Below the pieces are notes generated by a model. The model saw only the letters and a program-made list of their open reading frames with translations, was not told the origin of the DNA and ran no database searches. DNA of 64,000 nt from Alphaproteobacteria bacterium (lineage in GTDB: Bacteria; Pseudomonadota; Alphaproteobacteria; RF32; CAG-239): positions 6,646-70,645 of the forward strand of contig JAFSWL010000022.1 in the NCBI GenBank assembly GCA_017444525.1. Direction: 5' to 3'. Positions 7,404-9,665 of this stretch are shown in pieces. A program made the position numbers and the translations under genes. Numbering within the stretch: the stretch's first letter is position 1; every line of letters starts with the position of its first letter.

Positions 7404-9665
7404 TCAGCGCCCGTTTCCGCCTTTAAAAAACTGTGGAGGAATCGAAGTTATTTCATCATATGATGTTGCAAATTCCCGACGATTTTCATAGCTTAAAACT
7501 CTGCCGTTGTGCGATATGGAAAAACCGTTTTTTCCAAGCATTATCTGCGTTCCGTCGGCAAAAAGAATCGATCGCTTGCCATCTTTAGTGCGGCGAAAAC
7601 TCGTTTGTTTGATTATATTTTCATTGTTTTTAAATCTAAATTCGCTCAAACGTCCCGCCGCATCAATTGAAGTTCGATGACGATGATCCAATAGCAATAT
7701 ATCGCCTCCGCGCACCGGCTGACGGCGATTTTTTTCCATATATTCCGTAACGCGGAAATCTTTATCCATAATCAGCTTGCAGTTAGCTGTTTGCAATGCA
7801 TTATACTTTTCGGCATTTGTGTGCAATGCGATTCCCGTGTCCCAAACAACGCGTTGCTTTTCCAAATTTATACCGACACCGCACGGCAGTTTGATATTTG
7901 TTATATGATCTCGTTCTGTAGTGATTTCAAAACCGTTATGATAAGTTTCTTTTTGCTGTTTATCACCACCGTGTTTTTTCAGCAGTTTATCGGTCAATTC
8001 GATTTTGCCTCTTATTGCCAACTGCGGTGAACGCTCGGAGAGCAATACTTTGCGGTTTTCAAAATCCAATCTGACAACTTTGCCATCTTTGTGTGCGTAT
8101 TCATAAATTCCTTTCCGCACCCAACGTATTTCCGGACTGATGTCTAATATTTTATTGGTAAGCGCGTCAAGATCTTGAAAATACGTTTTTACGGCGTCAC
8201 GCAACTGTTGACGTAGTTGCGTGCTAAAATAGTTATGGCTCAGTGATTTACGCAGCTCGGTATAATTATGCCAAGTTTGGCTTTCTTGCTCCGAAAAAAT
8301 ACCTGATGTTCGCATATAGTCCCATGCCGCCCGATTTTTTAAATCCTGTCCTCGTGTAATGCAATAAGTCATCAAGCGACACTCCTGAGTGTGATATGTT
8401 TGCAAAAAAAAGGTACGCAAATCGTAATCATCGGCCAACTGCAAAAACTCATCTTTTTTTTGCGAGAAATCGTCTAAAATCACGACATTAGGTGCAACCT
8501 TGTGCAAATTTTTATGCAGTGCCTTATATTTATCACTATCCTGCGGATGGTTAATTTCCACTTTGACAGGTTCAGCCGGGTTTTGCCGATAAAGTACCTT
8601 AACGCGTTCTGTAAAGCTACTGTTGCCTTCTGATACATTGCGAATAACCCATTCCGGATTCAATTTAGAGACAATCTGCTGCATTTGGTGCAAAACCTCA
8701 ATATATGATTTCATACGTTGCACCAGTGTTTTATCGCAAAGTTTCAAGAATGACTTTATATATTGGCGGCGTTTCAATGTATTTTTCTCTGCTCTTTCGG
8801 CACGGAAATATCCGAGTTCATCCATACTATCCCACTGGTGGCGCAGTAGATTGCGGATATTAACATAATCAGAAAAATTCTCTGCCGAAGCGATAAGTCC
8901 TTCTTTTTGTGCCAATTCAAATGCCGTTTTGCCGTCCTTAACCTTATATCTGGTGCGGCAAATTTGTTGCAGTTTTTCCGCAAACGAAGAAAGTATTTCC
9001 AGAATAGTATTTTCATTCGCCGATATACTCTCTTCGGCAAAAACGTTCAAAACCAAGTTGTAACACCTTCTCTCCAGCGAATTTTGATATTTACGCAGCA
9101 TTTCGACTATATTTATAAGGATACGAAATTCAGCACGCGTATTTGAGTTTTGCAGGCATTCAAAAACCGATTTGTCAGCCTCCTCTTTGCGGGTATAAAC
9201 GGCCTTAAAAAAACCGTCGACGTAAAACTCCGTATTGCCGATTTTGGCATCTTCCGGAGAAACAATCACATAGCGCTCTATCGCCGACGGCAGCGGCATA
9301 TCCATCATATTAACAAAGTACGGCTGCGGCACATACTCCAAAAGCTTGGTTTTATTTTCTTCCGGATTGATGTGTTGCAGTGTGATATATGCCCGACCGG
9401 TATTGGTATGAACTTTTTCATCAAGAAAATCATCGAAAAGCTTTCTTTCGGAATAAGACATCAATTTCAGCTGCCACGGAAAATCGATATATCTGTCTTG
9501 CACCATATTTTCCATTTGATATCTGACAATATCCAAAATCGGCACTTCTTTCATCATTTTTTCATGCTGACGAGCAAAATAAAGATAATCCTTATATATT
9601 GCCGTCAATTCATCAATTTGACCAGCCGTAAACGGTGCAAAATCTTTATTTTGTTGTTCGCTCAT
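7404..9665 (-). CDS. orphan 753-aa protein with two HEPN-like (Rx4H) modules and an unknown beta-rich C-terminal domain
   Basis: NIRNLLRHQWD (aa 270-280) and ELRKSLSHNYF (aa 471-481) each resemble the R-x4-H HEPN signature of HI0074-type nucleotidyltransferase substrate-binding proteins. Each is preceded by a G-[LI]-[IF]-x-S-x-E/Q segment. Monocistronic: own promoter candidate and terminator. Confidence 0.55.
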   Translation of the reverse strand: MSEQQNKDFAPFTAGQIDELTAIYKDYLYFARQHEKMMKEVPILDIVRYQMENMVQDRYIDFPWQLKLMSYSERKLFDDFLDEKVHTNTGRAYITLQHINPEENKTKLLEYVPQPYFVNMMDMPLPSAIERYVIVSPEDAKIGNTEFYVDGFFKAVYTRKEEADKSVFECLQNSNTRAEFRILINIVEMLRKYQNSLERRCYNLVLNVFAEESISANENTILEILSSFAEKLQQICRTRYKVKDGKTAFELAQKEGLIASAENFSDYVNIRNLLRHQWDSMDELGYFRAERAEKNTLKRRQYIKSFLKLCDKTLVQRMKSYIEVLHQMQQIVSKLNPEWVIRNVSEGNSSFTERVKVLYRQNPAEPVKVEINHPQDSDKYKALHKNLHKVAPNVVILDDFSQKKDEFLQLADDYDLRTFFLQTYHTQECRLMTYCITRGQDLKNRAAWDYMRTSGIFSEQESQTWHNYTELRKSLSHNYFSTQLRQQLRDAVKTYFQDLDALTNKILDISPEIRWVRKGIYEYAHKDGKVVRLDFENRKVLLSERSPQLAIRGKIELTDKLLKKHGGDKQQKETYHNGFEITTERDHITNIKLPCGVGINLEKQRVVWDTGIALHTNAEKYNALQTANCKLIMDKDFRVTEYMEKNRRQPVRGGDILLLDHRHRTSIDAAGRLSEFRFKNNENIIKQTSFRRTKDGKRSILFADGTQIMLGKNGFSISHNGRVLSYENRREFATSYDEITSIPPQFFKGGNGR

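Follow-up and report, generated by a model that had tools for sequence, protein, structure and literature searches.

Introduction

HEPN ribonucleases are common defense effectors, and two routes to their control have been recognized. In the first, exemplified by HepT/MntA, activity depends on dimerization and is countered by a partner antitoxin; in the second, exemplified by Cas13, a pre-assembled intramolecular pair is governed by guide RNA and target binding. HepT is active in dimeric form, its Rx4H site being composite (PMC7641770), and a fusion of two stand-alone HEPN genes is the presumed origin of Cas13an (PMC12165695). FhepTA is a fused MNT-HEPN protein that contains one HEPN domain, is auto-AMPylated by its active MNT, and resides on mobile elements (PMC13000451). 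ApeA provides an example of single-gene HEPN defense (bioRxiv 10.64898/2026.03.20.713152), and Legionella DrrA/SidM is a type IV secretion system (T4SS) effector with an NTase-HEPN-like module (PMC3710099). Here, we compare with these systems a protein encoded in a 64,000-nucleotide stretch of alphaproteobacterial DNA (hereafter, the window), which an initial annotation had described as two HEPN-type Rx4H modules fused in one chain.

Results

Gene structure and expression signals

The gene occupies the minus strand of the window, and the following features, of which the promoter boxes and the ribosome-binding signal were read from the sequence, delimit it:

7404-9665, minus strand: coding sequence of the tandem-HEPN protein, 753 aa, ATG start, stop codon included
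9704-9709, minus strand: -35 box TTGACA of the gene's own candidate sigma-70-type promoter
9681-9686, minus strand: -10 box TATAAA, separated from the -35 box by 17 nt
9672-9676, minus strand: Shine-Dalgarno-like AGGGG, 6 nt ahead of the ATG
7364-7392, unstranded: 13-bp hairpin in the gap separating the tandem-HEPN gene from the convergent Bax1-I gene

The candidate promoter previously proposed at 9681-9709 is TTGACA-17 nt-TATAAA, both by reading and by a script run over homolog loci; a simple promoter scan missed it because the scan accepts only -10 boxes with T in position 6. An exact TTGACA lies at most 150 nt upstream of the gene in 25/30 homolog loci, compared with 6% of random windows, and most family loci are predicted to have their own TTGACA promoter. 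The terminator assigned to 7364-7397 fared less well. The hairpin is real, but its T-run sits on the plus strand; it serves first of all to terminate the plus-strand Bax1-I gene, and it could possibly end tandem-HEPN transcription only if it is bidirectional. The GC content of the gene equals that of its flanks. A shadow open reading frame on the plus strand (9150-9746) and other short overlapping frames were set aside as non-coding, given the conserved long frame on the minus strand.

Domain layout of the protein

An AlphaFold model of the whole protein (pLDDT 84.7), together with profile searches and alignments, divides the chain as follows:

9150-9665, minus strand: N-terminal region, aa 1-172; the predicted model shows two long helices (14-55) and, after them, a six-stranded α/β domain
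8652-9149, minus strand: HEPN-1 helical domain, aa 173-338 (Pfam HepT-like, hhalign, all-helical in models)
8460-8651, minus strand: α/β insert between HEPN-1 and HEPN-2, aa 339-402, 64 aa (model and alignment)
8136-8459, minus strand: HEPN-2 helical domain, aa 403-510 (Pfam HepT-like, PDB profile matches, fold matches)
7440-8135, minus strand: β-rich C-terminal domain, aa 511-742, including a loop (543-567) that is disordered (model)
7407-7439, minus strand: disordered C-terminal tail ending K-G-G-N-G-R, pLDDT <50 at 743-753

The flanks of about 200 aa at the N terminus and about 240 aa of β-rich sequence at the C terminus, noted at the outset, thus correspond to real domains in the model (α/β at 1-172 and β-rich at 511-741). 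In an alignment of 36 sequences, L20, Y24, R32, E35, W64, and P126 of the N-terminal region are invariant, and E130, D150, G151, and K154 are at least 90% conserved. The α/β insert has many conserved residues, mostly polar or basic; R342, E346, F351, N372, and L383 are invariant, and N348, R354, K356, K379, and K389 are at least 90% conserved. No Pfam match was obtained for aa 1-200 or for aa 340-410, and no PDB sequence match for the N-terminal or the β-rich domain. Foldseek matches of the C-terminal domain were weak (single-layer β-sheet, MORN-like, and OspA-like folds), and its internal repeats are not significant (E = 0.03). This domain is missing altogether from the ~560-aa members P0035 and P0037. 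An Arg residue ends 67/83 full-length members; the last 30 residues are net neutral and not Arg-rich. Judged by sequence, the N- and C-terminal domains have no known relatives and, like the insert, appear to be family-specific modules; the α/β N-domain appears to be novel.

Two divergent HEPN domains in one polypeptide

When the whole protein was searched against Pfam, the HepT-like family (PF01934) was matched over two stretches with E = 3.7e-7 and 30.3 bits, compared with a gathering score of 23.5. This threshold is passed only by the sum of the two halves: HEPN-1 (16.5 bits) and HEPN-2 (21.9 bits) each stay below 23.5 alone, with HepT-like still the top Pfam family for both (E = 0.007 and 1.5e-4, respectively). 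The second-best Pfam family, NTase_sub_bind (PF08780), scored 22.1 bits, below its cut-off of 31.8, and the NCBIfam HepT_toxin equivalog NF047751 scored 23.6 bits, far below its cut-off of 60. Across the family, HepT-like matches 32/36 members and NTase_sub_bind 26/36. By these scores, the protein is a divergent HEPN pair and not a HepT ortholog.

Aligned to each other with hhalign, the HEPN-1 and HEPN-2 profiles gave E-values of 1.9e-4 and 2.3e-4, with the motifs in register. The top PDB matches of the HEPN-2 profile were the HEPN toxin 8xdj, HI0074 (1jog), and HepT (5yep/6m6u), with the Rx4H motif aligned; PDB sequence searches with the whole protein and the whole-family profile were uninformative, and HEPN-1 had no match. 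Foldseek results for the full-length model were dominated by the β-rich C-terminal domain, and HEPN matches were recovered once the helical core had been re-modelled alone. The AF2 model of this core is one compact unit (pLDDT 82, pTM 0.66), and its only compact Foldseek matches were HEPN proteins: 1wwp (TM 0.69, rmsd 2.2 Å, probability 0.99), followed by 6m6u, 7bxo, 5yep, and 2hsb (TM 0.54-0.59), with E-values of 1.4-6.6 over the whole set, which are not significant. HEPN similarity was thus found by profile and, with Foldseek E-values that are not significant, by the fold of the core model. We conclude that the polypeptide contains two divergent, mutually homologous HEPN domains; the fusion of two Rx4H modules in one chain is borne out by Pfam, hhalign, and conservation.

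Conservation of the Rx4H motifs

Each HEPN domain carries one motif:

8838-8855, minus strand: Rx4H motif 1, R271-N-L-L-R-H276, then Q-W; R and H invariant
8235-8252, minus strand: Rx4H motif 2, R472-K-S-L-S-H477, then N-Y (HepT-type RX4HXY); R and H invariant

The peptides and positions originally reported for these segments were accurate (R271-H276, nt 8855-8838; R472-H477, nt 8252-8235). About one R-x4-H is expected per 750 residues, and a third R-x4-6-H match is present at R91; the motif alone is therefore not beyond chance, but conservation and the profile evidence exceed it. R271, H276, R472, and H477 are invariant in 36/36 sequences of an alignment that reaches down to 28% identity, and each of the 83 full-length members has both motifs at corresponding positions, so that the catalytic signature first noted in a single protein holds among its homologs. 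The residue after Arg is polar in each motif (N/H, or K), which matches canonical HEPN sites. The second residue after His is Trp in 65/83 members for motif 1. For motif 2, it is Tyr in 57/83 and His in 15/83, with a residue other than Tyr in 26/83. In the window protein this Tyr is Y479, equivalent in the RX4HXY motif to the AMPylation site of HepT.

Family distribution and genomic neighborhood

A first search returned 42 homologs, and an exhaustive search of 1.84 billion representatives returned 125 matches, confined to uncultured rumen/gut Alphaproteobacteria. Only one architecture was found (α/β N-domain, HEPN-1, 64-aa α/β insert, HEPN-2, and β-rich C-domain, which some members lack), and a genome often carries two paralogs of deep divergence. 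These searches show a small, closed family of fixed architecture within one bacterial lineage.

No MNT gene adjoins the tandem-HEPN gene in the window, as first remarked, and none was found within 4 kb in ~32 homolog loci. Clustering of neighbors at these loci revealed no gene family present in more than three of them, and a classical HepT/MntA or any other two-gene system was rejected on that basis. An NTP_transf_2-like gene lies 2.7 kb from the P0035 gene, and it was seen only at that species' locus. The annotated neighbors of homologs are housekeeping genes (groES/EL, tRNA synthetases, era/rnc, hflKC). Inspection of homolog neighborhoods therefore uncovered no recurring partner, and the description of the gene as stand-alone and monocistronic, also in view of its own TTGACA in 25/30 loci, extends to the family.

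The window contains no CRISPR array and no tandem or direct repeats. No Rfam family matched at its gathering score in the window, and around the gene only chance-level matches appeared at E-values up to 1; flanking non-coding DNA is not conserved across homolog loci beyond close relatives. No relatives were found in phages, plasmids, PHROGs, PADLOC, or IMG/VR viral contigs, and PADLOC-DB gave only a 13-bit chance match to Mem_02. Phage or plasmid cargo was rejected on these grounds. The same window holds a VirB4/8/8/9/10/11 type IV secretion cluster 19 kb from the gene; a VirD4 coupling protein was not found there. The gene itself adjoins a series of genes whose products are lineage orphans, poor in Pfam matches, and carry eukaryote-like elements such as MORN and GNAT.

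Comparison with described HEPN systems

The closest sequence and fold relatives of the tandem-HEPN protein are HepT of the type VII HepT/MntA systems (PF01934) and HI0074 (PF08780). It has in common with HepT the R-N-x3-H catalytic motif and, in HEPN-2, the Tyr of RX4HXY, and by analogy a composite active site built from two HEPN units may be expected. HepT, however, has ~130-150 aa, compared with 753 aa, two fused HEPN domains, and three family-specific modules here; unlike HepT, the tandem-HEPN protein is encoded off mobile elements, without a nearby MNT, and falls far under the HepT_toxin cut-off.

With Cas13, in which two HEPN domains form an intramolecular composite RNase site, it shares the presence of both domains in one polypeptide and, in the case of Cas13bt (~775 aa), a similar size. 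The fusion origin proposed for Cas13an would follow the same evolutionary logic. The tandem-HEPN protein nevertheless belongs to the HepT/NTase_sub_bind and not the AbiD/F lineage, and its motifs are central (271 and 472 of 753) instead of lying at opposite ends. A CRISPR or Cas13-like system was rejected: there are no repeats, and for neither model is a Cas13 chain among the 50 best Foldseek PDB matches.

FhepTA likewise has a HepT-type HEPN domain inside a larger chain with an N-terminal α/β module, which in FhepTA controls HEPN in cis. In contrast to FhepTA, the tandem-HEPN protein has two HEPN domains, is chromosomal, and is restricted to one lineage. G[GS] and DxD NTase motifs are absent from its conserved columns, and neither α/β segment gave an NTP_transf_2 match. 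ApeA and AbiD/AbiF are similar in being HEPN RNases encoded by a single gene, fused to a putative sensor region and lacking an antitoxin protein; they differ from the tandem-HEPN family, which has no PADLOC match, no ncRNA (RF03085), and no defense-island or mobile context. An AbiF-like protein with the RF03085 ncRNA was accordingly rejected, as there is no Rfam match and no flanking DNA conserved beyond close relatives. In DrrA/SidM and GlnE, α/β and HEPN-like helical modules alternate, as they do here, but their HEPN-like domains lack Rx4H and are non-catalytic, the NTase being active, whereas Rx4H is invariant in the tandem-HEPN family.

Discussion

We favor, with moderate confidence, the prediction that the product is a stand-alone ribonuclease of the HepT/NTase_sub_bind lineage, with both members of its HEPN pair in a single chain. 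HepT homodimers and Cas13 serve as models for the inference that HEPN-1 and HEPN-2 pack together within one chain, in which case R271/H276 and R472/H477 would line one composite, metal-independent endoribonuclease site. Since dimerization could then not be the control step and there is no antitoxin, control of activity would have to be exerted in cis. Candidates for this gating are the N-terminal α/β domain, the insert with its conserved basic residues, and the β-rich C-terminal domain; together they may constitute a substrate- or ligand-sensing and auto-inhibitory apparatus. The most likely role would be regulated cleavage of cellular RNA, in stress or growth control or in RNA processing, in preference to a mobile toxin-antitoxin or CRISPR function, because of the vertical-looking inheritance in housekeeping neighborhoods and the ancient paralogs.

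A constitutively promoted RNase without an antitoxin would need tight auto-inhibition or high specificity. Ancient paralogs and variable genomic positions are as compatible with a role in conflict or as an effector as with cellular regulation.

Two alternatives seem unlikely but deserve to be weighed. The first is that the protein is a secreted effector, exported by the VirB-type T4SS 19 kb away and cutting RNA in a target cell, be it a rumen/gut eukaryote, a host cell, or a rival bacterium; export would explain why no antitoxin is needed. The VirB4/8/8/9/10/11 cluster in the window is full, the adjoining genes encode lineage-orphan, Pfam-poor proteins with MORN and GNAT elements, and a lineage-restricted, modular, scattered, and monocistronic family with ancient paralogs fits the typical pattern of T4SS effectors. 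The disordered tail with its conserved terminal Arg (67/83) and the precedent of DrrA, a T4SS effector with an NTase-HEPN-like module (PMC3710099), point the same way. However, linkage to the T4SS does not hold in the family, housekeeping genes surround the homologs at the loci inspected, and no VirD4 was seen in the window. Moreover, the last 30 residues carry no net charge and are not rich in Arg, some members lack the whole C-terminal domain, and the adjacent immunity gene that an antibacterial effector would need is absent.

The second concerns assembly. Each HEPN domain may pair with its counterpart in a second chain, in a head-to-head homodimer or a higher oligomer, so that oligomerization would stay the activation switch, as in RnlA, Csm6, and FhepTA. 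All characterized non-Cas13 HEPN RNases are inter-chain dimers (PMC7641770, PMC8266594, PMC13000451), and the two paralogs that co-occur in several genomes could form heteromers; this arrangement merits the same degree of doubt as secretion. Against it, no member lacks either motif, the 64 residues of the insert give the domains room to fold back on each other, the AF2 core forms one compact unit (pTM 0.66), and Cas13 is a precedent for intramolecular pairing.

We regard as rather improbable a single-gene abortive-infection or anti-phage RNase comparable to ApeA and Cas13, in which the N- or C-terminal domain senses a phage component and frees the HEPN pair. The prevalence of HEPN RNases in defense, including single-gene examples (ApeA), the multiple diverged paralogs per genome, the family-specific putative sensor domains, and the lack of an antitoxin agree with such a function. 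PADLOC gives no match, though, and there is no defense island, the annotated neighbors being groES/EL, tRNA synthetases, era/rnc, and hflKC. The family is absent from phages, plasmids, and viral contigs, is limited to one bacterial lineage, unlike typical mobile defense genes, and has the GC content of its flanks. The chromosomal housekeeping context, the lineage restriction, and the absence from mobile elements give no positive support for a classical defense role.

It is very unlikely that the HEPN domains are non-catalytic nucleotide- or NTase-substrate-binding or scaffold modules, as in KNTase, GlnE, and DrrA, with the N-domain and insert as degenerate nucleotidyltransferase folds and the whole protein as a duplicated NTase-HEPN unit. 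In its α/β-HEPN-α/β-HEPN order the protein does resemble the GlnE-type (NTase-HEPN)x2 arrangement and MNT-HEPN fusions (PMC3710099, PMC13000451); the modelled N-domain has its secondary-structure elements in an NTase-like order, and NTase_sub_bind is the second-best Pfam family. Yet such families have generally lost Rx4H (PMC3710099), whereas both motifs are invariant here, and the α/β segments lack G[GS]/DxD motifs and NTP_transf_2 matches. The idea of an orphan type VII toxin, AMPylated at Tyr479 by an MNT antitoxin encoded elsewhere in the genome, has hardly any likelihood: the RX4HXY Tyr of HEPN-2 is kept in 57/83 members and an NTP_transf_2-like gene occurs 2.7 kb off at one locus, but that NTase is found at a single species' locus, no MNT lies within 4 kb in ~32 loci, and His or another residue replaces the Tyr in 26/83.

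Returning to the single-chain HEPN pair, the family was previously uncharacterized; the type of nuclease is well known, and no new enzymatic principle is involved. Beside the two established routes of HEPN control, the tandem-HEPN family would be a third case, a fused pair of HepT lineage that has neither antitoxin nor guide RNA, lies outside any mobile context, and keeps its catalytic residues intact over deep divergence. Two more far-reaching readings are conceivable, though doubtful. The protein may be an independent, HepT-derived counterpart of the pre-CRISPR ancestor of Cas13, with a composite site switched by ligand, RNA, or protein through the N- and C-terminal domains, or it may be the first T4SS-delivered HEPN RNase effector of a host-associated alphaproteobacterium. 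If either were true, it would represent a new, antitoxin-free control of a HEPN nuclease.

The family would offer a natural experiment on how HEPN gene fusion, from which Cas13 is proposed to have originated, makes, and tames, a self-contained nuclease, with the three family-specific domains probably carrying the regulatory or targeting logic. It would also provide an entry point to the biology of these uncultured Alphaproteobacteria of rumen and gut, which also carry an unusual T4SS.

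Two conserved Rx4H motifs in the 753-aa protein

The protein is encoded by the following ORF:

7404–9665, − strand: 2,262-nt CDS, ATG start, 753 aa

Its translation contains both motif peptides quoted in the initial annotation, R271–H276 at nt 8855–8838 and R472–H477 at nt 8252–8235. The R-x4-H string alone proves nothing, because about one occurrence is expected by chance in a protein of this length and R91 begins a third R-x4-6-H match. Conservation across homologs, on which the HEPN reading depended, lifts the pair above chance: a 36-homolog alignment (down to 28% identity) has only 29 invariant columns, which include R271, H276, R472 and H477, and both motifs occupy equivalent positions in 83/83 full-length members recovered.

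Catalytic HEPN sites typically carry a polar residue after the motif Arg, and this residue is polar in each of the two motifs (N/H, or K/N). The second motif is R-x4-H-x-Y, the HepT pattern, with the Tyr present in 57/83 members; the first is R-x4-H-x-W, and a subfamily of 21/83 members has R-x3-H-H in place of R-x3-R-H there.

HEPN homology and predicted structure

The Pfam HepT-like family (PF01934; gathering score, 23.5) matched the whole protein in two stretches (30.3 bits, E 3.7e-7), and member by member HepT-like matched 32/36 homologs and NTase_sub_bind 26/36. When either half was scanned alone, HepT-like was again the top family, at sub-threshold scores (HEPN-1, 16.5 bits, E 0.007; HEPN-2, 21.9 bits, E 1.5e-4). 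The proposed HEPN similarity was thus recovered by profile search. Compared with one another, the two domains also aligned with their motifs in register (hhalign E 1.9e-4 and 2.3e-4). A HEPN-2 profile placed the HEPN toxin 8xdj, HI0074 (1jog) and HepT (5yep, 6m6u) at the top of the PDB with Rx4H aligned, at weak E-values of 0.05–0.3; a sequence search of the PDB with HEPN-1 gave no match. Since the NCBIfam HepT_toxin equivalog was far from being reached (23.6 bits versus 60), both are divergent HEPN domains and not HepT orthologues.

A confident full-length AlphaFold2 model built with the family alignment (pLDDT 84.7, pTM 0.67) comprises:

aa 1–172: N-terminal helices and α/β domain
aa 173–338: first helical domain (HEPN-1)
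aa 339–402: small α/β insert, 64 residues
aa 403–510: second helical domain (HEPN-2)
aa 511–741: β-rich domain, then disordered tail

In Foldseek searches with the full-length model the β-domain dominated, yielding nothing beyond weak single-layer β-sheet, MORN-like and OspA-like similarity. When the core (aa 173–510) was modeled separately (pLDDT 82), HEPN proteins were the only compact matches, although with E-values that are not significant: 1wwp (TM 0.69, rmsd 2.2 Å over 99 columns, probability 0.99), HepT chains 6m6u, 7bxo and 5yep (TM 0.55–0.59) and 2hsb (TM 0.54). The predicted core fold supports the HEPN assignment without formally establishing it.

A lineage-restricted family

A word-indexed search returned 42 relatives, nearly all of 724–800 aa and essentially unnamed. 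When 1.84 billion cluster representatives were scanned exhaustively with HMMER, only 125 matched, ~60 of them full-length (680–813 aa) and the remainder fragments, and none of the domains occurred in a protein of different architecture. The GTDB genomes that carry the gene are exclusively MAGs labeled uncultured Alphaproteobacteria, Proteobacteria, Azospirillum or Rhodospirillaceae, from ruminant rumen, reticulum, omasum and colon and from other animal guts. No relative was found in phage genomes, plasmids or IMG/VR contigs, PADLOC and PHROG gave no match, and the GC content of the gene equals that of its flanks.

Four MAGs carry two copies each (homolog loci L006 and L019, L015 and L017, L012 and L022, L023 and L029). 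Being only 24–38% identical and lying in different deep clades, the paired copies are, judged by their divergence, ancient paralogous lineages and not recent duplicates; they could form heteromers or differ in function. The β-rich C-domain is wholly absent from the ~560-aa members P0035 and P0037. Only 8 nt separate the end of the P0035 gene (L036, 6001–7707) from a convergent 91-aa ORF; the C-domain was therefore lost and not split off, and such members define a conserved core of N-domain, HEPN-1, insert and HEPN-2. Where present, the disordered C-terminal tail (window 7407–7439, −) has the family consensus K-x-G-N-x-R-COOH, with a terminal Arg in 67/83 full-length members, and may be a signal for secretion or recognition.

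Transcription and gene neighborhood

The gene is flanked by a convergent gene for a Bax1-I/YccA-like membrane protein and, 200 nt upstream, by a co-directional gene for an 840-aa orphan protein. The following signals surround it:

9709–9704, −: −35 box TTGACA, upstream of the start
9686–9681, −: −10 box TATAAA, 17-nt spacer from TTGACA
upstream of the start, −: ribosome-binding site AGGGG
7364–7392: 13-bp hairpin, T-run on the + strand only

The promoter candidate proposed at 9681–9709 is present with both boxes. The terminator attributed to the gene exists as a hairpin, but its T-run on the + strand makes it chiefly the terminator of the Bax1-I gene. In 25/30 loci an exact TTGACA is present in the 150 nt upstream, compared with 6% of random windows, which makes independent transcription a family trait. 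In most loci (L003–L034; window 9704–9709) the −35 box is near-identical, (c)TTGACAAA, and lies 40–105 nt 5' of the start codon; it probably reflects the strong sigma-70 consensus general to such AT-rich genomes.

Neighbors of homologs vary: groES/EL and EPSP synthase, a metalloenzyme and era/rnc, a 4,760-aa giant protein and a ferredoxin gene, or a U32 peptidase and CvpA. Clustering of all ORFs within 4 kb at ~32 loci yielded no family in more than three loci, and the sole NTP_transf_2-like gene, which lies 2.7 kb from P0035, is specific to that species; the claim that the protein has no partner gene holds across the family. Flanking non-coding DNA is conserved only among very close relatives. 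No CRISPR or tandem repeats, Rfam family or tRNA were found.

A type IV secretion cluster in the window

The window also contains a VirB-type type IV secretion cluster (28256–54402, −):

28256–29404, −: VirB11-like ATPase
29241–33398, −: 1,385-aa protein ending in a TrbI/VirB10 domain, the rest beta-flower repeats
33401–37642, −: 1,413-aa beta-flower/RHS-repeat protein, preceding the VirB10-like protein
37643–39331, −: CagX/VirB9
39347–40099 and 40450–41292, −: two VirB8 paralogs
51973–54402, −: VirB4

Neither VirD4 nor a relaxase was seen in the window. With each ORF extended to its first possible start codon, the VirB11-like and VirB10-like ORFs overlap by 164 nt; the former probably starts further downstream, since its Arg-rich N-terminal 60 residues do not look genuine. 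Within the cluster, six ORFs in a row (41228–51891, −; 1707, 455, 381, 518, 262 and 234 aa) matched no Pfam family at E 0.001 and are possibly VirB6-like or lineage-specific T4SS components. Directly upstream of the cluster lies a 1,355-aa autotransporter (24069–28136, −; C-terminal β-domain E 1e-39), and at homolog locus L004 an autotransporter and the 4,760-aa protein stand beside the family gene. Type IVb pilus or secretin genes (TcpQ-like, secretin, PilO-like accessory protein) occupy 58477–62093 (+).

A run of lineage orphans adjoins the HEPN gene (9865–20090, −), interrupted by two ABC exporter genes (15432–18966). The 840-aa protein has only a weak N-terminal GNAT match and a 519-aa protein one MORN_2 repeat match, both genes being syntenic with the HEPN gene only in its closest relatives (L007); proteins of 313, 165 and 369 aa matched nothing in Pfam or PHROGs.

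Discussion

The protein combines two homologous HEPN domains with intact catalytic motifs in one chain, fixed family-specific modules and no partner gene. The initial observation is thus confirmed, and the interpretation given to it is largely supported. On the motif and a profile score above threshold, with the predicted fold supportive, we place the protein in the HEPN superfamily.

Characterised HEPN RNases, among them HepT (PMC7641770) and RnlA (PMC8266594), build their active site from two Rx4H motifs that dimerisation joins; Cas13 pairs its HEPN domains inside a single chain (PMC12165695). On the simplest reading, HEPN-1 and HEPN-2 would fold back across the insert into a pseudo-dimer, with one putative composite, metal-independent RNase site. 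Pairing of the domains between chains is a live alternative. With the pseudo-dimer, activity would need either gating in cis or high substrate specificity, because dimerisation would be constitutive, there is no antitoxin and the promoter is near consensus. Such control could come from the N-terminal helices and α/β domain (L20, Y24, R32, E35, W64 and P126 invariant; E130 at least 90% conserved), the insert, which may form an RNA-binding patch (R342, E346, F351, N372 and L383 invariant; N348, R354, K356, K379 and K389 at least 90%), and the β-rich C-domain.

Several features speak against a classical TA or defence-island gene: the family looks vertically inherited within one lineage, sits in housekeeping contexts, has a normal composition and is missing from mobile elements. 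They favor a lineage-specific cellular RNase acting in stress or growth control, or in RNA processing. That the protein is instead a T4SS effector is less likely but plausible. The VirB genes in the window, the adjoining orphans with GNAT- and MORN-like fragments, the ancient paralogy and the terminal Arg of the tail would all suit such a role, for which DrrA, an effector with an NTase-HEPN-like module, is a precedent (PMC3710099); however, linkage of the family gene to a T4SS is not conserved, VirD4 was not found in the window, the tail is not Arg-rich and some members have no C-domain.

The family shares domain lineage and motif with HepT/HI0074-type toxins, which, unlike it, are small, dimeric and MNT-paired. 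It shares two-HEPN single-chain logic with Cas13, which is CRISPR-guided and has another HEPN lineage and layout, and cis control of a HepT-type domain with the MNT-HEPN fusion FhepTA, in which a single HEPN is joined to an active MNT and the location is mobile (PMC13000451). The single-protein HEPN RNase format is also that of ApeA and AbiD/F-type proteins, but their models gave no match and no ncRNA is associated here. Assignments to type VII TA, Cas13, AbiD/F, ApeA and FhepTA each fail at least one tested defining feature. The 2013 census of the HEPN superfamily notes occasional fusions to MNT for the PF08780/PF01934 group, and the terms "two HEPN" and "duplicat" are absent from it; no description of a non-CRISPR tandem HepT-type protein was found in the literature, incompletely covered.

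We conclude that this is a lineage-restricted family of stand-alone tandem-HEPN proteins with three uncharacterised accessory modules. It bears on the fusion step from which Cas13, too, is proposed to have arisen, with no new principle, and provides a testable lead on antitoxin-free control of HEPN nucleases.
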